The position numbers and the translations under genes were made by a program. Under the pieces are notes generated by a model. The model searched no databases. It was not told the origin of the DNA and was given only the letters and a program-made list of their open reading frames with translations. A stretch of DNA of 62,560 bases from an uncultured Draconibacterium sp. (GTDB taxonomy: Bacteria; Bacteroidota; Bacteroidia; Bacteroidales; FEN-979), in assembly GCA_964387205.1 (NCBI GenBank), contig CAYLVY010000003.1, forward strand, positions 17,006 through 79,565, written 5' to 3'. Positions 3,250 to 60,911 of this stretch are shown piece by piece (positions within the stretch are counted from its first letter, which is position 1; each line of letters opens with the position of its first letter).

Positions 3250-4365
3250 ATGAGTAAAGTTGCCTTAATCACCGGAGTCACAGGTCAGGATGGCGCCTAC
3301 CTGTCGGAGTATCTGCTCAAACTGGGCTACATTGTCCATGGAGTGAAGCGCAGGGCATCCCTGTTCAACACCGACCGGATCGATCATCTCTACCAGGATC
3401 CTTTTACAGCCAACAAGAATTTCTATCTCCATTACGGAGATATGACCGATTCCACCAACCTGATCCGGATCGTGCAGGAGACACAGCCCGATGAAATATA
3501 CAACATTGCGGCCATGTCGCATGTACAGGTCAGTTTTGAAACGGCGGAATATACCGCCAATGCCGATGCCATCGGCACGCTGCGGTTGCTGGAGGCGATC
3601 CGTTTACTGAAGATGGGCGGGAAGACAAAATTCTACCAGGCTTCTACCAGTGAGCTTTACGGCAAGGTACAGGAGATTCCCCAGTCAGAAAAAACTCCAT
3701 TTTACCCCCGTTCCCCTTATGCGGTGGCAAAGCTTTACGGATACTGGATCGTGGTCAATTACCGCGAGGCATATGACATCTTTGCCTGCAACGGGATCCT
3801 GTTCAACCACGAATCGCCCATCCGCGGAGAGACCTTCGTAACGCGCAAGATCACCAGGGCTGTGGCAAAAATCGCCCTGGGTCTCCAGGATACGCTTTAC
3901 CTGGGCAATTTATCGGCCAAACGCGACTGGGGCCATGCCAAGGATTATGTCAAGGCGATGTATCTCATTCTGCAGCAGGAAAAGCCTGATGATTATGTCA
4001 TCGCTACCGGGGTGACAACCGAGGTGCGTGATTTTGTCAGGCTTGCCTTTGCCGAGCTGGGCATTGTGGTTGATTTTGAAGGGGAAGGAGTGAACGAGAC
4101 AGGCGTGGTAAGGGAGTGTCAGCATCCCGATTTCCGGCTTCCCAAAGGGAAAGTAGTGGTAAGGGTAGATGCCCGTTATTTCCGGCCCACCGAAGTGGAA
4201 CTGCTGATCGGGGATGCCACGAAGGCCCGTCAGCAGCTTGGATGGATCCCGAAGCACGATCTCAACTCGCTGGTGAAGGATATGGTGAAAAACGACCTGT
4301 TGCTTATGCAGCGGGACAAGTATTTAAAAGAGGGTGGTTTTTCAATAAAGAATTATTATGAATAA
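3250..4365 (+). CDS. gmd: GDP-mannose 4,6-dehydratase
   Basis: 371 aa. N-terminal [19 protein letters not shown] Rossmann motif, a YAVAKLY catalytic motif, and [21 protein letters not shown] typical of Gmd. Confidence 0.93.
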
Positions 4366-5323
4366 ACGCGACAATGTGTTGATCCTGGGCGCTGCCGGAA
4401 TGGTTGGCAGCGCAATCCTGAGGAACCTGCTCAGCCAGGGATTTGAGCATATAATGGGGACCGATTACCGTTCGGTGCAGGCAAAATTTGAAGGGGTCAC
4501 CTACCGGCAGGTTGATTTGATGGATCCGGTGGCCACCAAAGCCCTTTACACGGAGGCGGCACCGGATTACGTGTTCGTCGCCGCAGCCAAAGTGGGAGGG
4601 ATCGTGGCCAACAACACGTACAGGGCCCAGTTCCTTTATGAAAACCTGCTGATCCAGAACAATGTGATCCACCAGGCTTATCTTTCCGGGGTAAAAAAGT
4701 TGCTTTTTCTGGGAAGCTCCTGTATTTATCCCAAAAATGCGCCGCAGCCCATCCGGGAGGAATACCTGCTCACGGGAACACTGGAATATACCAACGAACC
4801 TTATGCCATAGCAAAGATCGCAGGGCTGAAGATGTGTGAAAATTATAATCTGCAATACGGTACCAACTTCATAGCGGTGATGCCGACCAATATGTATGGC
4901 CCCAACGATAACTATGACCTGCAGAACTCCCATGTACTGCCCGCGCTCATCCGGAAATGCCATGAAGCCAAAGTGGCGGGAGCCCCGACGGTTACCATCT
5001 GGGGTACCGGCTCCCCGATGCGGGAGTTTATGCATGTGGACGACCTGGCCGCCGCCGTGGTTTTCCTGATGAACACATACAACGGAAACCGTTTTCTCAA
5101 CATCGGCTGGGGAAAGGACATCTCCATCAAAGACCTCGCTTACCTGATAAAGGAGGTTACCGGATTTAACGGTGAACTGGTATTCGACACCTCCAAACCC
5201 GATGGCACGCCGCGAAAACTGCTCGATGTTTCTCTTTTGACATCGCTCGGTTTCACTCCCTCCATCCCGCTTCGGGAAGGAATTGAACGTACCTATGCCG
5301 ATTTTCTGGCCAAACATGTCTGA
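4358..5323 (+). CDS. fcl: GDP-L-fucose synthase (GDP-4-keto-6-deoxymannose 3,5-epimerase/4-reductase)
   Basis: 321 aa. Motifs [27 protein letters not shown] and [11 protein letters not shown] match the Fcl/WcaG family. Overlaps the gmd stop by 8 nt. Confidence 0.92.
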
Positions 5324-7531: not shown

Positions 7532-8565
7532 GGATTATGGAAAAGCGACCTCTGTTGAGCGTACTTATGCCTGTTTACAACGGGAGAGCCTTCCTGAAGC
7601 CTGCCATGGACAGTATTCTGTCGCAGAATTTCGATAACTTCGAGTTGGTGATCATCAACGATGGTTCGACAGATGACAGCCAGCAAATCATCGATTCTTA
7701 TAAAGATCCCCGCATCGTGCCGGTTGTACAGAAAAACCAGGGGGTGGCCCGCTCGCTTAATAACGGATTGGATATTTGCCGGGGGAAATATGTCAGGCGG
7801 CACGATGCCGATGATGTATCGTTGCCCGGTGCATTTGAGATGCAGATCAAATTCCTCGAATCGAACCCGGAATATGTCATGGTATGCAACCAGGCGGCGT
7901 TCATGACAGAGAGAGGCAAACCGGCCTGGAAATACCGTTTGCCCAGGAACGATTTTTTCAGCGGGGGGAAACGGGTTGACCTTGGATTCGACCACTTCCG
8001 TGCGGACAGCACCACCCCGGTGATCCATGGAACAGCCTGTTACCGTAGGGAGGAGATCATCTCCATCGGAAAGTACAGAACCGCATTCATCGTATCGGAA
8101 GACAACGATCTCTGGATCCGGCTGATTGAAAAATACAAAATTGCCATCCTAGGAGAATGCACTTATCTGATCCGACTACACGGCACATCAGCCACGCGGA
8201 GGCATGCAGGAAAGATCCGCCATTTCAGGCAGCTTTTGCTGGATTATTCAAAGGAGCGCAGGGAGAAGGGCTCCGATCCGATCATGCGCGGTGAACCGTT
8301 GCCCCCGGCGCCACCCTCCGAAGCAGCGGAACCCGTCAGGAAAGAAGGAAAAGGAAAGGATTACAGGGAAGACCTGCAATACATATACGGATTGGTGGTC
8401 AATGCCGGTGACTGGACCGAGATCCGCAAATATAGTACCGAGATCATTCGTGATGGCTGGAAAGACCGCCGCACATGGAAAATGCTCACTTTTCCGATTT
8501 TAAGCGAACGATTGATCAAAACGGGTGTCTCACTGAAATCCTTCCTTAGGGGCAATAATCAATAA
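7528..8565 (+). CDS. Glycosyltransferase family 2
   Basis: N-terminal LSVLMPVYNG...VIINDGSTDDS and a DADD motif. ATGA overlap with wzt. An alternative ATG lies at 7537. Confidence 0.85.
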   Translation: MRIMEKRPLLSVLMPVYNGRAFLKPAMDSILSQNFDNFELVIINDGSTDDSQQIIDSYKDPRIVPVVQKNQGVARSLNNGLDICRGKYVRRHDADDVSLPGAFEMQIKFLESNPEYVMVCNQAAFMTERGKPAWKYRLPRNDFFSGGKRVDLGFDHFRADSTTPVIHGTACYRREEIISIGKYRTAFIVSEDNDLWIRLIEKYKIAILGECTYLIRLHGTSATRRHAGKIRHFRQLLLDYSKERREKGSDPIMRGEPLPPAPPSEAAEPVRKEGKGKDYREDLQYIYGLVVNAGDWTEIRKYSTEIIRDGWKDRRTWKMLTFPILSERLIKTGVSLKSFLRGNNQ

Positions 8566-49407: not shown

Positions 49408-50171
49408 TGAAAGAATTTTCCATATGGCGACGGCACGGGAAACAATTCGTCCCTGATTTGCGCAATGCTGTCCTTCCCGATATTTTCCGCGGTCGTCCCG
49501 TAATCGCAGCCGACATTTCAGGGGAGGAGGCAAAAGCTGCAGCAGAATGCTGCCCGGTGGACGCTATCCGCACAAATCCATGCACCCTCGACCTGGGCCG
49601 GTGTGTTTTTTGCAGGGAATGTACCTTTCTCAGTGGCGAAAAAATAAAATTCACGCGCGATTTCCGGATGGCCACCAATAACCGCAACGATCTGATCATC
49701 AGACAGGGAGAAGACAAACCGATACGGATCGACGATGCGAAGGTAAGAAAAGAGGTCGGAACACTCTTTCGTCACGCACTCAAATTAAGACAGGTTTCAG
49801 CCGGCGGCGACAATTCGGCCGAGATGGAGCTCAATGCAGCCGGCAATGTCAATTTCGACATGGGAAGATATGGAATCGAATTTGTAGCCTCCCCCCGCCA
49901 TGCCGATGGTGTGGTGATCACCGGGCCTGTCTCCGCCAACATGTCAGAAGCGCTTGAAATCTGCTACCATTCCATTCCCATGCCCCGGATCATCATTCTT
50001 GCCGGTAGTGATGCCATCGGAGGAGGCCTTTTCCAGGAAAGCCCCGCCATAAACCGGCAATTTTTATCGCAATATCCTGTAGATCTTTTTGTTCCCGGAA
50101 ATCCTCCTCACCCTCTCACTTTCATAAACGGGATACTGGACCTCACACGCGGATCACTTTTTCCCAAGTAA
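49404..50171 (+). CDS. NuoB/HycG-HyfI-like small subunit lacking all four [4Fe-4S] cysteines, fused to an N-terminal ferredoxin-like remnant
   Basis: FVASPRHADGVVITGPV is conserved. Against E. coli HycG recalled from memory, CGGCNGCE reads AGGDNSAE, GACG reads GSDA and PGCPP reads PGNPP. The N-terminal part carries ECCPVDAI and CVFCREC. The start is refined to the ATG at 49404, overlapping the upstream stop. Confidence 0.85.
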   Translation: MMKEFSIWRRHGKQFVPDLRNAVLPDIFRGRPVIAADISGEEAKAAAECCPVDAIRTNPCTLDLGRCVFCRECTFLSGEKIKFTRDFRMATNNRNDLIIRQGEDKPIRIDDAKVRKEVGTLFRHALKLRQVSAGGDNSAEMELNAAGNVNFDMGRYGIEFVASPRHADGVVITGPVSANMSEALEICYHSIPMPRIIILAGSDAIGGGLFQESPAINRQFLSQYPVDLFVPGNPPHPLTFINGILDLTRGSLFPK

Positions 50172-52049
50172 AAGATAATGCCTCCAGTCGAACACCAGGC
50201 GAAATCCCCCGTACCAGATGCTTTTCACCGGCGGGAAAGGATCCCCTTCGTCCAGAATAACTTTTCGTTTACCCGGGATATCCAACCCTGCGTGCAACTG
50301 CAGTTTCATGTTGGCCCCCTGCCTGGCACCATAAATGCGTAAAAAACGGTATTCGACAACTGGAAACTCCAATTGCGTCGAATACATGGTGATCAGGGTT
50401 TGTTCATCCTGCACCCCTTTCTTTCCCAGGATCATATGATCAGGGCCCTCGCCGGTGCCATACATGCAAACTCCGACCTCGCGGCCAAGGATAAACTGAA
50501 ACCTCCCGATGGGTGTGGTAATGCCCGACTGCCATGGAAGTAACCCCCCGTTCCCGGCGGTAACGATCATTTTATTGAGGGTGGCAGGAGATGACAACAG
50601 CAGGACAGGGGCGGCCACGAGCAGATCGCCGGGAAGAAGGAAGAAAGGCAGTCTTAACCTCATATACCAGGCATCACGGCCGGGAATGGCAGTCATATAG
50701 GACCCAAACTGCTTCAGCTCCGGATCATCTTCGATGGAGATCGAACTGGAACTTTCAAGCCTCCAGCCCAGGTCCAGAAAGGCCAGTCCATCACCTGATT
50801 CGTTGACCACTCCGTCCATTCCAAGCCCGACACGCAGCGCCATTTCCAGACCCGGGATCACTCCGGTTGATCTTTGCCTTGTCCCGAAACCGCCGTCATG
50901 AAAATGAACATGCAAAGCCGGGGCGATGCCGATAAAGGGACCCAGTTCGGCATTGATGCGCGGAAGGGCACCCAGTCCGGTAGCCAGCCCCGGAGCAGGA
51001 GTGCCTGCAAGCACCTGGTTGCATCGGTAATCGATGGCCGGACTGACGAGGCGATAGATATGAACCTTGGCAAGACTGACATTAAGGGTATCCGGCATCA
51101 TAACGTCTACATCCTCCACGACATCTTCCTTCAGGTCATTTCCGGCAGCGGCGTCCAGCACCTGGGTTAGGCTGATCAGCACCGCATCAGCGGCTTCATC
51201 AATATCCTGAGGCCGGATATAGGCATCGCCGGTGAGGATGATCTTCCGGCCATTCCAGGTCGTCACCTGCAGGCCGGCTTCATTGTAATAATCGTGAGTC
51301 CCCTTGCGCTGGGAAGCGTCACCCCATATTCCGGCCACATGACCGGCGGCAAAATTATCCTCCAGGAAATGAAGGGCAAAAGCCTCATCGGCCAGCATGC
51401 TCAGGGCGATACTGCTTCGTTGCTCCGGGGTCAGACCGGGAGAAGCCAGGCGCTTTGCTTTGATCAACGCGCTGTTATGGAACCAGGTATAAATACCTAC
51501 GATGTTCAGGGGGGCGCCGGGTTTGCAACAGGAATCAAAGTAGGCAGCGGCACCAATATCTACATTGGGTAATGCCATCAGAAAATGGCCGAAATTATTG
51601 CCGGCCCGGGCAATATAATCGGGATCGGCACGCAGCAGCCGGATATCGGAATCCCTCAGACGATTGATCCGCTCACTCTCATTGCGGGCAGTGGCGATGC
51701 CCTCGCCAAGCTGGGCGCCGATCGAGGCCACTTTCATGATCCATTCCGAATGGAGAATGATCCGGAGCATGTCGTCGGGTGATGCCGAATGGTCACCGCC
51801 AATAGCCGGCCAGGTGACAAAATCAAGTTGTTCCGGATGTAATCCCTGTTGGTCTTCCATCACTCCGGGAAACAATCTGGCCTCATGGCCCTTTCGCGCT
51901 GCAGTCCATAGTGCATCCAGCAGCGCTCTGTGTTGCGGGTCAAGCCTTTCGACAGCAGTCCGGGTGATATCCCGGTGCTCGGGAAATACCCATGCATATC
52001 CATTCCAGCCGGCCAGCAGGAACGTCAGGATAAATAGAAACTTTTTCAT
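50154..52049 (-). CDS. Secreted 631-aa protein of unknown function, possibly with a zinc-dependent PLC / S1-P1-like N-terminal domain
   Basis: Signal peptide (cleavage near GYA-W). The N-terminal W-x5-H (WVFPEHRD), GGDHS, HFLEDNFAAGH and THDYYNE motifs loosely resemble PLC/P1-nuclease metal ligands. The C-terminal half of about 300 aa is beta-rich. The 3' end overlaps the Ehr operon end by 18 nt. Confidence 0.5.
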   Translation of the reverse strand: MKKFLFILTFLLAGWNGYAWVFPEHRDITRTAVERLDPQHRALLDALWTAARKGHEARLFPGVMEDQQGLHPEQLDFVTWPAIGGDHSASPDDMLRIILHSEWIMKVASIGAQLGEGIATARNESERINRLRDSDIRLLRADPDYIARAGNNFGHFLMALPNVDIGAAAYFDSCCKPGAPLNIVGIYTWFHNSALIKAKRLASPGLTPEQRSSIALSMLADEAFALHFLEDNFAAGHVAGIWGDASQRKGTHDYYNEAGLQVTTWNGRKIILTGDAYIRPQDIDEAADAVLISLTQVLDAAAGNDLKEDVVEDVDVMMPDTLNVSLAKVHIYRLVSPAIDYRCNQVLAGTPAPGLATGLGALPRINAELGPFIGIAPALHVHFHDGGFGTRQRSTGVIPGLEMALRVGLGMDGVVNESGDGLAFLDLGWRLESSSSISIEDDPELKQFGSYMTAIPGRDAWYMRLRLPFFLLPGDLLVAAPVLLLSSPATLNKMIVTAGNGGLLPWQSGITTPIGRFQFILGREVGVCMYGTGEGPDHMILGKKGVQDEQTLITMYSTQLEFPVVEYRFLRIYGARQGANMKLQLHAGLDIPGKRKVILDEGDPFPPVKSIWYGGFRLVFDWRHYLLLGKK

Positions 52050-55173: not shown

Positions 55174-55449
55174 ATGAAATACCTGATCCGCACATTATCG
55201 AAGATGCTCTTCCCAATCCTTTTCGCTTTCCTAACTATACAGGTAATGGCTGAAGATCCGCCCCCACCCCCGCCGGGAGGCAGTGTGGGCGACGGATCCG
55301 GTAAAGGGGGAGACGTCAATGTCAGGAACGGAGCCACCGGCGCCCCTATCGATCGTAATACCAGCGCCCTGATCGCCGTTCTGATCATTTCAGCCGGATT
55401 TGGCAGTTACCTGCTCCTGAAGAAAGAGAAGGCCACGGATGGTGCCTGA
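55174..55449 (+). CDS. Small pre-protein: signal peptide, 34-aa Pro/Gly-rich segment, C-terminal TM helix, basic tail
   Basis: 91 aa. Residues 1-26 are a signal peptide (..IQVMA). EDPPPPPPGGSVGDGSGKGGDVNVRNGATGAPID follows, then ALIAVLIISAGFGSYLLL and KKEK. Overlaps the downstream exosortase-like gene by 11 nt. Confidence 0.6.
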   Translation: MKYLIRTLSKMLFPILFAFLTIQVMAEDPPPPPPGGSVGDGSGKGGDVNVRNGATGAPIDRNTSALIAVLIISAGFGSYLLLKKEKATDGA

Positions 55450-56062
55450 TTCCCTGATCCGGCGCCTGACGCCTGAATCATCATTTTTCAAAAGAAACAG
55501 GACCGTCATCAGGTTTCTGGTAAGATTGGTGACAGCCCTGTTGATCTATTTTGTCCTCATCACCCTGATCAAATCCAACCCTGCCTGGGATCGGTACTTT
55601 AAAACTTCAGGACCTGTCTACGCCCTTTCAGCAGCCTCCGCCCATACTACCCGTGAGGCCCTGAACCTGTCAGGCTATGAAGCCGAAGTCCATTATTCCT
55701 ATGCCTATACCGACGTGATCGGCCAGGGAGTTTTTGTGGTCAATATACCCGGCAGCGACGGAATATGGATAGGAGGCCATTGCCTTGGACTAAAATTGCT
55801 GGGAATTTTCGTCATTCTGATTGCAGCCTTCCCGGGCCGGTTGCGAAGAAAAATCTGGTTCATCGCCGGCGGGATAACCCTTATCGAAGCGATCTATATT
55901 TGGCGACTGGCCTACCTTGTGGTAGTCAGCAAAAAAGTCGCCGAAAGCGGGGCAGACTTCAACATGGCAGCTTTTTCGGGTCAGGTTCACGACTATCTCA
56001 ACCTGGGATTGTATATCCTGATCATTATCCTTTTCTTTCTTTACGCCCGTTTTGTAGCCTGA
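55439..56062 (+). CDS. Exosortase/archaeosortase-family-like membrane protein
   Basis: 207 aa with 4 TM helices. GGHCLGLKLLGIFVILIAAFPG (Cys115), IEAIYIWRLAYL (Arg156) and VHDY (His184) have XrtF-like order and spacing. Confidence 0.55.
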   Translation: MVPDSLIRRLTPESSFFKRNRTVIRFLVRLVTALLIYFVLITLIKSNPAWDRYFKTSGPVYALSAASAHTTREALNLSGYEAEVHYSYAYTDVIGQGVFVVNIPGSDGIWIGGHCLGLKLLGIFVILIAAFPGRLRRKIWFIAGGITLIEAIYIWRLAYLVVVSKKVAESGADFNMAAFSGQVHDYLNLGLYILIIILFFLYARFVA

Positions 56063-56241: not shown

Positions 56242-57111
56242 ATGGAACGTATTAAAGAAAAATCAACCATGTCGGGCTATATTGCCATCCTGGTTAGCCT
56301 GTTGATGATCGCCCTTGGGGTATGCGGGATGGTCTGGTTCAACCATCTGGTTTCGGGAATTGTGGTCTCGTTGCTCCTGATCCTTGCGGGCGTGTTTATT
56401 ACCGGAGGATTGCTGGTGGTCAACCCGAACGAATCCTCGGTACTGGTGCTGTTTGGCGCTTACAAAGGTACAATCCGCCAAAACGGATTTTTCTGGGTGA
56501 ATCCTTTCTATCACCGGAAGAAAATCTCCCTGAGGGCCCGCAACCTGAACCGTGAACCTATCAAAGTAAATGACAGACTGGGGAACCCGATCATGATCGG
56601 CATCGTGCTGGTATGGCGTGTGGAGGAGACCTTCAAAGCCGCCTTTGAGGTAGATGATTACAGCCATTTTGTGGATATTCAAAGTGAATCGGCCACGCGA
56701 AAACTTGCAGGGCATTATGCTTACGACAACTTCGACGATGAGCAGCAGGAGATCACCCTTCGCTCAGGCGGAGAGGAGGTCAACCACGCCCTGGAGACTG
56801 AATTGTCAGAGCGGCTGGCGATGGCCGGGATCAAGGTGCTCGAAGCGCGGATCAGTTATCTGGCATATGCTTCCGAGATCGCAGGGGCGATGTTGCGCCG
56901 TCAGCAAGCGACTGCGGTAGTAGCGGCCCGTACCAAGATCGTGGAAGGAGCGGTTAGTATGGTAGAACTTGCACTGGATCAGCTCAGTAAAAAGAAAGTG
57001 GTGGCGTTGGACGAAGACAAAAAAGCGACGATGGTAAGCAACCTGATGGTGGTGTTGTGCTCCGACAAGGACACCACTCCGGTGGTGAATACCGGAACCC
57101 TGCATCAATAA
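56242..57111 (+). CDS. SPFH/band-7 (stomatin-prohibitin) domain membrane protein
   Basis: Two N-terminal TM helices, then an SPFH-like core (VNPNESSVLVLFGAYKGTIRQNGFFWVNPF...) and a coiled-coil tail. Confidence 0.75.
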   Translation: MERIKEKSTMSGYIAILVSLLMIALGVCGMVWFNHLVSGIVVSLLLILAGVFITGGLLVVNPNESSVLVLFGAYKGTIRQNGFFWVNPFYHRKKISLRARNLNREPIKVNDRLGNPIMIGIVLVWRVEETFKAAFEVDDYSHFVDIQSESATRKLAGHYAYDNFDDEQQEITLRSGGEEVNHALETELSERLAMAGIKVLEARISYLAYASEIAGAMLRRQQATAVVAARTKIVEGAVSMVELALDQLSKKKVVALDEDKKATMVSNLMVVLCSDKDTTPVVNTGTLHQ

Positions 57112-57116
57112 AGGAT

Positions 57117-57299
57117 ATGGCGGGGAAGAAAGTATTTATGCTGAGGGTCAACCCTGAGGTTTATGAAGCCCTGGAGAAGTGGGCAGCGGATGAATTCAGG
57201 TCGGTCAATGGTCAGATCGAATGGATCCTGGATTCGGCATTGAAACAACACAGGAGGACACCCGGCGAAAAAACAGAAGAGGAGGAGACAAAGCCCTGA
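57117..57299 (+). CDS. Arc/MetJ-type ribbon-helix-helix protein
   Basis: 60 aa. KKVFMLRVNPEVYEALEKWAADEFRSVNGQIEWIL fits an RHH fold. The start is refined to the ATG at 57117. Confidence 0.6.
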   Translation: MAGKKVFMLRVNPEVYEALEKWAADEFRSVNGQIEWILDSALKQHRRTPGEKTEEEETKP

Positions 57300-57323: not shown

Positions 57324-57593
57324 TTACGCTTTGCCAAAGAGGCGCTGTAGGAAGGTCCTGTTCTTTCTGGCTGATTCCTTATCGTCGGAATAATAGCCAT
57401 AGCCATAACCGTAGCCGTAACCCGATCCGTAGCCGTAACCGTAGCCATAGCCATAACCGTAGCCATAACCGTAGCCGTAGCCGTAGGAACTTCTGTCGAG
57501 CCGCACGTCGTTGATGAGGATAGCCAGGTGGGGGAGTCCCCGTGTCTCCATATCGTAGATAATCGAATCGAATATCTGCTTATTGGTATATCC
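57324..57593 (-). pseudogene. C-terminal segment of the second Wzc-like kinase (last kinase strand plus the (YG)n Tyr cluster), cut off by an in-frame TAG
   Basis: It is in the same frame as 57594-59810. It reads GYTNKQIFDSIIYDMETRGLPHLAILINDVRLDRSS(YG)10SG(YG)4YYSDD..., the expected continuation of a BY-kinase after ...LFLAR. Confidence 0.75.
57390..57485 (-). repeat. Imperfect 6-bp microsatellite (TAYGGN)n encoding (YG)10-SG-(YG)4-YY
   Basis: A direct codon-by-codon reading gives 16 Tyr within 32 residues. Confidence 0.9.
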
Positions 57594-59810
57594 CTACCGG
57601 GCGAGGAAGAGCGATGCATCCGCGAGCTTCATCAGCAAAAATGCATCGGTAACCAACCCAACCGGGGGTGTATCGATGATGATGTAATCATATCGCTTCT
57701 TGAGTTCCGTAAACATTTCAACACACCTTTCCGAGGCGATCAGTTCGGCGGGGTTTGGCGGGATGGGTCCCGATACAAGGATATCGAACTGATCCACACC
57801 GGAAGGGAAGATGATATCCTCCAACTTGCTTTTTCCGATGAGATACGAACTGATCCCTTCGGCATTGCTCAGGTCAAAATCCTTATGCAACTTCGGTTTT
57901 CGGAGGTCAAATCCCATCAGCAGGGTCTTTTTGCCGTACATGGCGAAAATGGAGGCCAGGTTGGTCGAGATAAAAGTCTTTCCTGCGCCCACCATATCAG
58001 CAGTGATCAGGATAGTTTGCTGTTCTTTTCCCTGCAGGAGGTAATTCAGGTTGGTACGCACCGAACGGAAGGATTCGGCGAGGGTTGACTTCGGATAATC
58101 CATCACCACCACCTTTCCTTCTTTATCGTTATGGATCACATGTCCGACAATGGGAAGCGGTGTGATTTTTTCAATGTCTTCACGGGCAATGATCTTGTCG
58201 TTAAAATAGTCTTTGCCGAAGATGTAAACCACCGGGATGATCAATCCGAGGATCAGCGCGATGATATAGTTCAGGCTCTTTTTGGGGAATACCGGGGTTT
58301 GACCTTTGATTGTGGCTTCATCCACCACTTCATTGTCGGACAGATTGGCGGCCAGGGTGATCTGTGCTTCCGAACGCTTCTGAAGAAGATAGGTATAAAT
58401 GGCGTCGGTAAGTTTGAATTTTCGTTCGATCCCAAACAGTACCCTTTGGGTTTCCGGCAAGTTATTGATGCGAAGGTTCACCATCTGCACCCGGTTGTTA
58501 ACCTCTTTCAGGGCTATATTATTGGTATTGATAGCGCTTTTGACATTTTCATACAGTGCGTTCTTGGTAGTGGCGATCTGCAGGTCAAGGGAGATCAGCC
58601 CGGGATTTTTCTCCTTGGAGTATTGCGCCATATCGGTGCGTTTCATGTACAACTCCGTCAGTTTCCGGGTAAGGTCATTCAGGATAACATTATCGATTCC
58701 CATGGTAGCCGGCACGATCAGTTCGTCCAGTTTCTGGTTTTGCTCAATGTACTCCTTCATGTTCTGGAGGTACTTCGACCTAACCATCAGGGTAGCCTTT
58801 TCATCCTGCAGCTCCATCATCTTTTCGAATACCGAACGTGCTTCGTCATCAAGGTTCATGATCTCTTTATTAGTCCTGAACTGCATCAGGGCCCTCTCGG
58901 AAGCATCGAGTGAATCGGAAATGCCCTGCAACTCTCCATCGATAAAGCTGATCGTACGGGTAGCCACCAGGTTCTTTTTTTCCAGGCCTTTGGCCATATA
59001 TTCGCGGCAGAGGGTATTCAGAAAGTCGGCCAGTTTATGGACATTACCACCTTTAAGTTTGATCTCCACGATAGAGGCTTCACGGTTGATGGGTTCTACG
59101 GTGAAAGCCTTATACTGGGATGCTAGCGCATCATAATCGTTCAAAATGAAATAGAATGTCTGGTTCAGGTCCTCCTCAGGGTTAAAATTTTCGTTCAGCA
59201 ACAGGGTAAAACGGTATCCGCCCGATTGAACAACCTGCCCGAATTTAAAGGTTTCATTGATCTGAATCTTGGCTTTTTTACCCTCAGGGGCCTTCTTCTC
59301 ATTGAAAATGTAGAAACCCACCTCCTCTCCGTCGGCAGTCAGTGAGTAGTGGTCACGTGAGAGGATGGTCAGGTAAAACCGCAAGCCTACCGGCTGAGGG
59401 AATGAACTGTCGAACGAAACGACAAAAGGGCAGTCTTTATATAGTTCCGAGGTGACAAAATTCGACTCCCGGAAATAACTGACTTCAAATCCCAGTTTTG
59501 TGACCGTACGATAGGTCAGTGCCTGAGAGGTAAGGATCCCGATCTCGTTTTGCAGGTTCTGCTGATTGTTCATCAGGCCGATCCCCAGAAGGGCGGACGG
59601 GTCGAGTTTATTTTCAGACTTATCCTTGACCAGGAGCGTGGCTTTAACCTCGTAGACCGGTTTGGTATATTTGTTGAACACAAAGGCGAGAACCAGCGCT
59701 ATGAAAATGGTGATGGCAAAGAAATACCAGTAACGGTATATTTTAAAAAGCAGCACTTTATAATCAATGGACTGATCCTGCTGATTGAAATCCTGAAGAT
59801 GGTCGTTCAC
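57594..59810 (-). CDS. wzc: Wzc/GumC-family polysaccharide co-polymerase / BY-kinase (truncated at an in-frame TAG)
   Basis: 738 aa. Two TM helices and a coiled-coil periplasmic domain. Walker A ADMVGAGKT, A' LLMGFDLRKP and B IIIDTPPVG. Ends ...ADASLFLAR-TAG (57594-57596). Confidence 0.85.
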   Translation of the reverse strand: MNDHLQDFNQQDQSIDYKVLLFKIYRYWYFFAITIFIALVLAFVFNKYTKPVYEVKATLLVKDKSENKLDPSALLGIGLMNNQQNLQNEIGILTSQALTYRTVTKLGFEVSYFRESNFVTSELYKDCPFVVSFDSSFPQPVGLRFYLTILSRDHYSLTADGEEVGFYIFNEKKAPEGKKAKIQINETFKFGQVVQSGGYRFTLLLNENFNPEEDLNQTFYFILNDYDALASQYKAFTVEPINREASIVEIKLKGGNVHKLADFLNTLCREYMAKGLEKKNLVATRTISFIDGELQGISDSLDASERALMQFRTNKEIMNLDDEARSVFEKMMELQDEKATLMVRSKYLQNMKEYIEQNQKLDELIVPATMGIDNVILNDLTRKLTELYMKRTDMAQYSKEKNPGLISLDLQIATTKNALYENVKSAINTNNIALKEVNNRVQMVNLRINNLPETQRVLFGIERKFKLTDAIYTYLLQKRSEAQITLAANLSDNEVVDEATIKGQTPVFPKKSLNYIIALILGLIIPVVYIFGKDYFNDKIIAREDIEKITPLPIVGHVIHNDKEGKVVVMDYPKSTLAESFRSVRTNLNYLLQGKEQQTILITADMVGAGKTFISTNLASIFAMYGKKTLLMGFDLRKPKLHKDFDLSNAEGISSYLIGKSKLEDIIFPSGVDQFDILVSGPIPPNPAELIASERCVEMFTELKKRYDYIIIDTPPVGLVTDAFLLMKLADASLFLAR

Positions 59811-59818
59811 GGGAGAAT

Positions 59819-60607
59819 CTATTTGAAATAATTAATGAGCAGTAGTGTGGTGGAAACGGAGGACAATACGATAGCCCATGGGAAGGTGGATCCCAGCCCC
59901 CAGCGTTTGTACCCCAATGGGGGAACATAGAGGATATCATTGGGCTGCAGATAGTAATAGGGGGAATAGAGGATTTCATGCCGGTTAAGGTCAAGGTTGA
60001 TTACAACGGAACCCTCTTTGGTCTTCCTCACCAGCGCCACTTTACCACGGTTGGCAAATTCACTCATATCACCGGCCTGGGCAATCGCCTGGAAAATGTT
60101 GACCTGATTCTGATAAAAGGTCAGTTCCCCGGGCCGTCCAACCTCCCCCATCACGGTTACCTTGAAATTGACCAGTTTCACCACCACCGCAACCTCTTTC
60201 ATATATTCACTTACCAGTTTTTGGATCAATTCATTGACCTCACCAATGGTCTTTCCTGCAACCAACACTTTCCCGATGATCGGAAACTCGATATGGCCAT
60301 TATCATCCACCGAATAACTGTTGAGATAAATGGAGGCATCATTGGCATAGTCGTTGTATGACCCGCCTGAAACACTTTGCTTGTTGAAATACAAAGATGC
60401 ATTGGGGTCCAGAGAGTAGACCCGGATATATAAATTATCCCTGACCTGGATGATATAATTCTTGTCATTCTGAAGCGATGGGGCAAGGGTGGTATCCCCT
60501 GCCACCTGTTTCTGAAGGTATTTGATCTTTTTTTGCGGAACACAGGAAGAAAACACAACCAGTCCAGTCATGAGAAGTAGTGCCAGCCTGAGCATCAGAT
60601 ATTTCAT
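59819..60607 (-). CDS. wza: Outer-membrane polysaccharide export lipoprotein (Wza/OPX family), second copy
   Basis: Lipobox VVFSSC. YIIQVRDNLYIRVYS Poly_export motif and an SLBB-like region. The start is refined to the ATG at 60607. The ORF track begins at 60694. Confidence 0.8.
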   Translation of the reverse strand: MKYLMLRLALLLMTGLVVFSSCVPQKKIKYLQKQVAGDTTLAPSLQNDKNYIIQVRDNLYIRVYSLDPNASLYFNKQSVSGGSYNDYANDASIYLNSYSVDDNGHIEFPIIGKVLVAGKTIGEVNELIQKLVSEYMKEVAVVVKLVNFKVTVMGEVGRPGELTFYQNQVNIFQAIAQAGDMSEFANRGKVALVRKTKEGSVVINLDLNRHEILYSPYYYLQPNDILYVPPLGYKRWGLGSTFPWAIVLSSVSTTLLLINYFK

Positions 60608-60626
60608 AGTGGTTGAAATTGAGGGG

Positions 60627-60634
60627 CAAAGGTA
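60627..60634 (-). promoter_or_regulatory. Candidate -7 box (TACCTTTG on the minus strand) upstream of the second wza
   Basis: The plus strand reads CAAAGGTA, an exact TAnnTTTG on the minus strand. It lies 20 nt upstream of the ATG at 60607. Confidence 0.35.
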
Positions 60635-60911
60635 CGAAAAAACTCTTGTGAAAGGATTTACCGGGACAACATAAACCATCTTATTGATTTTCAATTTATC
60701 TCATTTGACAACCCGCTGTTTTTCTGTAGTTTAGAATAGCACAGAATCACCATGTTCATGCAGATCACGTGAATACCAGGGTGATCACTTTCTGATTTTT
60801 TTGGATACATTAAAGTCGTGAACCTGACATTACTCATCAGAACCCCGGTGCATTCCAGACAGTCCATCGGCCATTGTTTGTCTCACGGCAAAACAGGTCC
60901 GATTGTCAGGA

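Follow-up and report, generated by a model that had tools for sequence, protein, structure and literature searches.

Exosortases and archaeosortases are polytopic membrane cysteine proteases of one superfamily, e.g., XrtA (EpsH) of the PEP-CTERM system and ArtA of the PGF-CTERM system. The signals of both systems are tripartite and consist of a short motif, a hydrophobic helix, and a basic cluster. Their substrates are many, unrelated to one another, and mostly large, and the systems are found in a polysaccharide export neighborhood. The catalytic triad proposed for exosortases is made up of Cys, Arg, and His, and ArtA substrates become lipid-anchored (bioRxiv 10.1101/2023.06.07.544157). In the dedicated one-to-one systems of Haft, the enzyme and its target are encoded by consecutive genes, which is the published criterion for such a system (bioRxiv 10.1101/2023.06.07.544157).

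The PID-CTERM proteins of Bacteroidota are catalogued as NF046080 and PF28310. The small exosortases of this phylum include XrtX (NF046081), XrtY, and XrtF, which are about 200 aa in length and have conserved Cys, Arg, and His residues. By the naming of the database entries, XrtX and PID-CTERM may be an enzyme-substrate pair. To our knowledge, the substrates of XrtF, XrtX, and XrtY have not been shown experimentally. A functional study of Flavobacterium johnsoniae states that the exosortase substrates of this organism remain to be identified (PMC10936215). We found no paper on the family in the literature on PID-CTERM, XrtX, and XrtY.

The cargos of the T9SS include surface proteins of type A and type B. 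RemA, RemZ, and NucA are type-A substrates, and RemA is a gliding adhesin (PMC10994853). Type-B cargos are encoded directly upstream of a small cognate partner gene, e.g., the sprB-sprF pair, where the partner is a PorP/SprF outer-membrane beta-barrel (PMC12618676).

The locus described here resembles an exosortase/C-terminal-signal system. Its mini-protein is homologous to the PID-CTERM mini-proteins, and the locus fails the cut-offs of both NF046080 and NF046081. The PID-CTERM family is already known; what is new is a divergent branch of it, with changed residues after PID, a change at a near-invariant position of the enzyme, and a cassette that includes a cargo gene.

The mini-protein and its layout

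The window is the whole stretch of 62,560 nucleotides analyzed here, taken from an uncultured Draconibacterium sp. (GenBank assembly GCA_964387205.1, contig CAYLVY010000003.1). The features of the locus are collected in Table 1.

Table 1. Positions of the mini-gene, its predicted segments, and the adjoining genes in the window.
Feature	Position	Strand	Remarks
Secreted protein, 305 aa	52779..53696	+	First gene of the clade-specific four-gene cassette; orthologs carry Pfam PF26696 (PTL_trimer)
RemA-like T9SS cargo, 488 aa	53700..55166	+	Signal peptide, module of about 390 aa, type-A C-terminal secretion domain; assigned by family profile
Mini-protein ORF, 91 aa	55174..55449	+	ATG 55174 to TGA 55449; belongs to a divergent branch of the PID-CTERM-type family
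Predicted Sec signal peptide, residues 1-26	55174..55251	+	Cleavage after V-M-A, as read from the sequence
Pro/Gly-rich 34-residue peptide E27-D60, predicted exported part	55252..55353	+	P29-P34 at 55258-55275; RNGAxGAPID nearly invariant
P58-I59-D60 signature motif	55345..55353	+	Proposed recognition and cleavage site; clade-invariant; aligns with the PID of NF046080-positive proteins
Predicted C-terminal transmembrane helix A65-L82	55366..55419	+	Hydropathy peak 2.32; L66, L70, G77, Y79, L81 invariant
Basic cluster K83-K84-E85-K86	55420..55431	+	Predicted cytoplasmic stop-transfer end of the tripartite signal; KxYxxRK in relatives
Exosortase-family membrane cysteine protease, 207 aa, XrtX-like, unnamed subfamily	55439..56062	+	TIGR04178 match; proposed Cys/Arg/His
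Proposed catalytic residues of the exosortase	Cys115 55781-55783; Arg156 55904-55906; His184 55988-55990	+	Assigned by conservation

An earlier note on this DNA had described the small ORF as a signal peptide, a Pro/Gly-rich stretch, a hydrophobic helix, and a KKEK cluster, and this architecture matches the ORF as we read it. The signal peptide has a basic n-region (K2, R6, and K10), a hydrophobic core, and small residues at -1 and -3 of the VMA-ED junction. In 80 relatives, the aligned signal-peptide end is A or S, followed by (D/E)DPPPP. The segment E27-D60 holds 7 Pro and 9 Gly among its 34 residues. By hydropathy, the 18 residues A65-L82 are the only strongly hydrophobic segment of the mini-protein besides the signal peptide, and the basic cluster lies near the extreme C-terminus, as the protein ends at residue 91. 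The signal-peptide cleavage and membrane topology given here are a reading of the sequence.

In the alignment of the clade to which the window belongs, the pattern GGS.G.G.G.GG....RNGA.GAPID is invariant (G35, G36, S37, G39, G41, G43, G45, G46, R51, N52, G53, A54, G56, A57, P58, I59, and D60). It is followed by R or K, the helix, and the basic tail. All 80 canonical relatives keep the polyPro run unchanged.

The ORF is a conserved gene

The ORF at 55174-55449 is a real gene. Orthologs of its product, with 45-77% identity, occupy the same position in loci L001-L006 and are 91 aa long in L001-L003, 88 aa in L004, and 93 aa in L005, while the copy in L006 is partial. A word-based search returned one protein of 77% identity. 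Between the mini-genes of the window and L001, the first, second, and third codon positions show 17, 6, and 40 differences, respectively, and dN/dS is 0.14. A chance ORF, arising from a GC-rich run of Pro/Gly codons and left untranslated, could be suspected because a 116-aa antisense ORF overlaps 55174-55449 and one gene caller took the antisense frame in L005. This reading is effectively refuted by the low dN/dS with its third-position excess, by a reading frame that is kept in six contigs and about 200 relatives, and by antisense frames that are interrupted in orthologs, no single one of these frames being open in all of them.

Within the window, the C-terminal signal was found in this ORF only. 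A motif screen of the window and L001-L012 detected such a signal only here and in the L001-L005 orthologs; the screen is specific to the non-glycine helix and does not pick up the canonical GG-type mini-proteins of L007-L012. The mini-protein HMMs match this ORF alone in the window, and neither approach returned another window protein with the same signal.

Pro/Gly-rich mini-proteins are easily mis-annotated, as the public record of L005 illustrates. At 7607-7918 of this locus, the conserved 93-aa mini-protein is missing from the public gene call, which has a 77-aa antisense ORF in its place and shortens the exosortase to 160 aa. The public names of these mini-proteins are hypothetical only.

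A divergent branch of the PID-CTERM family

A search with a profile of five orthologs brought up about 90 proteins that are built in the same way and are 57-108 aa long, many of which carry Pfam PF28310, named PID_CTERM. NCBIfam NF046080, "PID-CTERM protein-sorting domain-containing protein", is matched by 63 of 80 relatives. The canonical design is a signal peptide, (D/E)DPPPPPP, a Gly-rich stretch, and GAPIDGGLGILLALGAxYGGxKLYxxRK, and the window mini-protein has the same succession of signal peptide, polyPro, Gly-rich stretch, GAPID, transmembrane helix with [FY]G, and basic tail. Both forms occur in Bacteroidota, and a RemA-like gene usually precedes the mini-gene. Comparison of the window clade with the 80 canonical mini-proteins by hhalign gives a probability of 99.35% (E 6.6e-21), and the match covers nearly the entire protein, from the signal peptide through polyPro, GAPID, and the helix to the basic tail. 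With an HMM of the 80 canonical mini-proteins, the window ORF reaches 47 bits (E 6e-14). The proteins P0010-P0014 bridge the two forms: they have a GGSSGGGSGTGG...RNGA stretch in common with the window clade and APIGGGL in common with the canonical form. By these comparisons, the ORF product is a divergent member of the PID-CTERM mini-protein family catalogued under NF046080 and PF28310.

The family link is owed to the profile search, as direct searches of the window ORF against NCBIfam and Pfam returned nothing, even at E 10. With NF046080 (cut-off 26 bits), neither the whole window protein nor its C-terminal 36 residues gave a match at E 10; on the same model, relatives score 33-39 bits and the intermediates 20-24 bits. 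Precomputed PF28310 matches are absent for P0001, P0002, P0008, and P0009. No NCBIfam match of any kind was obtained for the window mini-protein at E 10, and no PEP or LPXTG motif is present. It does possess the P-I-D signature before a transmembrane helix and a C-terminal basic cluster. The glycine-rich helix GGLxILLxLGAxYGG that follows the motif is absent, and the window protein instead has RNTSALIAVLIISAGFGSY, which keeps only the [FY]G.Y part. In other words, what comes after PID is R or K, then polar residues and a helix rich in Ala, Ile, and Leu, whereas canonical members have GGLGILLALGA, and the window mini-protein falls below both curated models (NF046080 and PF28310). An entire branch of the family escapes the curated PID-CTERM and XrtX models.

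The earlier note had pointed to a GAPID-RNTS motif different from those of PEP, PGF, and LPXTG signals. The motif does differ from these; it is not new, being the P-I-D of the catalogued PID-CTERM domain. The mini-proteins of a sister clade (L134 46-372, L135 4548-4910, and L136 4512-4799) have a Cys right before the motif (GTGCPIDR) and more Cys in the helix. The window-clade mini-proteins have GAPID and no Cys.

The adjacent exosortase

The 207-aa product of the next gene passes the exosortase/archaeosortase signature TIGR04178 with 34.1 bits (cut-off 23). Its best subtype is XrtX (NF046081), at 65.3 bits, far below the cut-off of 170. Within the clade, C115, R156, and H184 do not vary, and the first two are also unchanged in 30 distant relatives. 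No more than 174 relatives at E below 1e-3 came out of an exhaustive profile search. Of 21 relatives scanned against the XrtX model (19 database proteins plus the enzymes of L029 and L062), P0188 alone reaches the cut-off, and none of the nearest relatives does so. These results place the enzyme within the XrtX/XrtY/XrtF radiation, in a part that has no name. When the species-representative genomes were scanned with clade-specific exosortase peptides, no relative turned up, and the window clade is thus absent from this set.

The AlphaFold model of the exosortase is a helical bundle with a pLDDT of 79. A PDB sequence search and a fold search with this model gave chance matches only, there being no solved exosortase to compare. 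Judged by charge and hydropathy, the RLRRK loop is probably cytoplasmic, with Cys115, Arg156, and His184 at periplasmic helix ends, where they would face the PID side of the mini-protein.

The window enzyme differs from XrtX at a near-invariant position. Tyr153 (55895-55897), three residues before the catalytic Arg, is Asn in at least 90% of 30 relatives. Tyr is found at this position in the window clade and the sister clade (L133-L136 compared), and both have mini-proteins with PID-R/K. Enzymes near PID-GG mini-proteins keep Asn. This apparent covariation of Asn/Tyr with GG versus R/K, in a small sample, is the pattern that would be expected if enzyme and substrate co-evolve.

Mini-genes beside exosortase genes

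In each of the five window-clade loci, the small ORF immediately precedes the orthologous exosortase gene. In the sister clade (L134, L135, and L136, found by a metagenome scan), the exosortase is 46-48% identical, the gene order is RemA-like gene, small ORF, exosortase, and the motif of the mini-protein is GCPIDR. One canonical locus, L062, encodes a 57-aa mini-protein (39.5 bits on PID_CTERM) directly before an XrtX-like enzyme of 99 bits. In total, the mini-gene adjoins the exosortase gene in L001-L006, L134-L136, and L062. The association does not extend to all related exosortases: a small ORF beside every one of them was considered and rejected, as a clade of 35% identity (L137-L139) has none.

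Canonical mini-genes behave differently. An exosortase gene lies within 8 kb of the mini-gene in 3 of about 120 cases among the matches listed, while mini-genes of the window branch are always directly beside one. That canonical mini-genes almost never adjoin an exosortase gene speaks against the exosortase pairing. PID-CTERM was found solely on homologous mini-proteins and never on unrelated larger proteins. By the published criteria, such confinement is atypical of a general sorting signal and fits the exception of a dedicated system (bioRxiv 10.1101/2023.06.07.544157).

Two points raised by the earlier note bear on this pairing. It had named the ORF product as a candidate substrate of the adjacent exosortase-family enzyme, and this proposal gains support from the sequence: the enzyme passes the signature model, Cys115, Arg156, and His184 are kept, and the putative substrate carries a PID motif. 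It had also suggested looking for the small ORF next to orthologous enzymes, where we find it in eight loci of two clades with PID kept. The exosortase ORF starts at ATG 55439, which confirms the noted 11-nt overlap with the mini-gene. The stoichiometric co-expression read into this overlap is not supported, as the overlap is confined to the window and L001-L003; L004 has a 2-nt gap, and the sister clade a spacing of about 100-220 nt. The overlap suggests co-transcription, perhaps translational coupling, and not stoichiometry.

RemA-like cargo genes as the common partner

The gene upstream of the mini-gene, which ends 8 nt before it, was overlooked in the earlier note and encodes a RemA-like T9SS cargo, the more universal partner of the family. 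Taken alone, the 488-aa protein of the window has no PDB match and no family match at E<=0.01 in either NCBIfam or Pfam. Combined with six homologs into a profile, it matches F. johnsoniae RemA 939-1436 (E 4.9e-32), RemZ (E 3.6e-30), and the NucA CTD (E 8e-4), so that the relation to RemA holds at the family-profile level. Homologs precede the mini-gene in L001, L004, L005, L007, L009, and L011. The window protein is 27-42% identical over about 465 aa to the upstream genes of the unrelated loci L007, L009, and L011.

The species-representative genomes were scanned with the pattern GAPIDGGLxI[LIVM], which gave at least 120 loci (L013-L132); by our estimate, only a few chance matches are expected. 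Nearly all of the matches listed come from MAGs of Bacteroidales, Prolixibacteraceae, and Lentimicrobiaceae, several to a genome, and every one of them sits in a small ORF (median 81 aa). A RemA-like gene is directly upstream in 100 of the 115 evaluable canonical mini-genes listed, with a median gap of 37 nt, e.g., L019 98-1789 and L113 1337-7793. One MAG has at least 5 RemA-like/mini-gene pairs; in L113, two such pairs stand in tandem, and L063 carries two consecutive mini-genes. The mini-family is primarily associated with RemA-like cargo genes, and in some cases it is linked to an exosortase as well. No paper describing this pairing was found in the literature.

The cassette and its surroundings

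The window clade has one cassette that comprises the cargo gene, the mini-gene, and a dedicated exosortase gene. As in the one-to-one systems of Haft, enzyme and target come from consecutive genes. The locus differs from those systems in that the cassette includes a T9SS cargo gene and in that the mini-family is elsewhere dispersed, with several copies per genome. It differs from the PEP-CTERM/XrtA and PGF-CTERM/ArtA systems in its motif and in having a conserved mini-protein as the candidate substrate. The succession of a surface-protein gene and a small partner gene recalls the type-B cargo and PorP/SprF pairs; here, however, the cargo has a type-A RemA-like CTD, the partner is a peptide of ~80-90 aa predicted to be anchored in the inner membrane, and there is no homology.

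The gene for the 305-aa protein stands before the RemA-like gene throughout the window clade, e.g., in L001, L004, and L005. A homolog is found in only 4 of the 120 canonical loci listed (L062, L039, L050, and L104), and a PTL_trimer-like gene as a general partner of the mini-proteins is rejected. In L062, where an exosortase gene abuts the mini-gene, the homolog is a minus-strand ORF at 3678-4556 on the reverse-complement axis.

The cassette is followed, at 56242-57299 of the window, by a Band_7/SPFH gene, which is conserved in L001-L003 but not in L005, and by a small gene of the ribbon-helix-helix type. On the opposite strand, at 57594-60694, lie Wzc-like and Wza-like polysaccharide export genes, the usual exosortase neighborhood and one that is common to the PEP-CTERM/XrtA and PGF-CTERM/ArtA systems. 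The Wzc-like tyrosine autokinase gene (minus strand) has an in-frame TAG at 57594-57596, where the L001 ortholog has CAG (Gln) and continues for 90 residues with a (Gly-Tyr)n tail and a long Tyr run. This tail survives in the window as a separate 75-aa ORF at 57324-57551 (minus strand). The TAG is either a nonsense mutation that makes the gene a pseudogene or a sequencing error. Upstream of the cassette, a 631-aa secreted protein is encoded at 50154-52049 (minus strand), with a gene of the same length and strand at the matching position of L001. This protein has no family match at E<=0.01 in Pfam or NCBIfam.

Proposed mechanism and alternatives

Our preferred reading, to which we give a probability of about 0.6, is that the peptide is exported by Sec, anchored at its C-terminus, cleaved at PID by the adjacent exosortase, and acts with the RemA-like adhesin. 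Beyond the observed gene, family, synteny, and conserved catalytic residues, we infer the topology, the cleavage, and the steps after it as follows. The mini-protein would be exported by Sec and lose its 26-residue signal peptide. Its C-terminal helix would tether it in the inner membrane with KKEK in the cytoplasm, which would bring the RNGAxGAPID-R segment to the periplasmic side of the membrane surface. The adjacent enzyme, if it acts as other exosortases and archaeosortases do, would recognize this segment and cut at or next to PID via Cys115. The cut would remove the helix, and the Pro/Gly-rich peptide of ~34 residues may then be released or transferred to another molecule. Genomic association suggests that the peptide works with the RemA-like type-A T9SS surface protein. 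A role for the 34-residue product as a lipid tag, a glycan tag, or a primer, as the earlier note had imagined, is speculation. The exosortase reading is weakened by a mini-protein that the curated models do not recognize and by an enzyme far below the XrtX cut-off.

As the main alternative, the mini-protein may stay uncleaved and serve as an inner-membrane-anchored accessory of the RemA-like cargo, e.g., a periplasmic escort or tether, with the exosortase acting elsewhere or having only a regulatory role. The universal neighbor of the family is indeed the RemA-like gene and not the exosortase, conservation covers the whole mini-protein and not just its C-terminal signal, and T9SS type-B cargos have a cognate partner gene directly downstream (PMC12618676). 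We nevertheless consider an accessory role unlikely. With its tripartite C-terminus and a strongly conserved motif where it meets the membrane, the mini-protein looks like an exosortase substrate (bioRxiv 10.1101/2023.06.07.544157), the mini-gene abuts an exosortase gene in three independent lineages, and the Asn/Tyr difference of the enzyme tracks GG versus R/K in the substrate. That the product is the precursor of a secreted glycine-rich bacteriocin-like or signaling peptide is hardly credible: it is small and Gly-rich, and one relative weakly matches a class IIb bacteriocin model (E 0.008), but the leader is of the Sec type and not a double-glycine leader, the cassette lacks an ABC transporter for processing and export as well as an immunity gene, and a conserved C-terminal membrane anchor does not fit.

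A further possibility keeps the exosortase and gives its product a specific fate. The T9SS sortase PorU would attach the RemA-like adhesin, once freed of its CTD, to the processed peptide, which would serve as anchor or acceptor in place of anionic LPS. The mini-genes are paired with genes for type-A CTD cargos, and in Porphyromonas gingivalis and Tannerella forsythia the cargo C-terminus is joined to a serine- or glycine-bearing linking sugar (PMC7468200). Moreover, xrtF mutants of F. johnsoniae share colonization, biofilm, and zorb phenotypes with porU and porZ mutants (PMC10936215). Set against this, the idea is purely inferential, the peptide would start in the inner membrane with no known route to the surface, and L135 and L136 have several RemA-like genes per mini-gene, so that the pairing is not strictly one to one; we regard a role as PorU acceptor as highly doubtful. 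From the same cargo pairing, linking-sugar finding (PMC7468200), and shared mutant phenotypes (PMC10936215) comes the broader proposal that PID-type mini-proteins link the exosortases of Bacteroidota to the T9SS, the Pro/Gly peptide, perhaps joined to a lipid or glycan, being the anchor dedicated to the adhesin or its acceptor in transpeptidation. This proposal is quite improbable as well.

Significance

If the anchor or acceptor reading were true, the peptide would be a peptide-based alternative to A-LPS anchoring and would explain why xrtF mutants of F. johnsoniae have the phenotype of porU and porZ mutants. The cassette is short, is conserved in two clades, and unites a candidate substrate, its enzyme, and a RemA-like T9SS adhesin. 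It makes the substrates of Bacteroidota exosortases and their relation to T9SS adhesins directly testable, and the locus gives a handle on the surface handling of a class of type-A T9SS adhesins.
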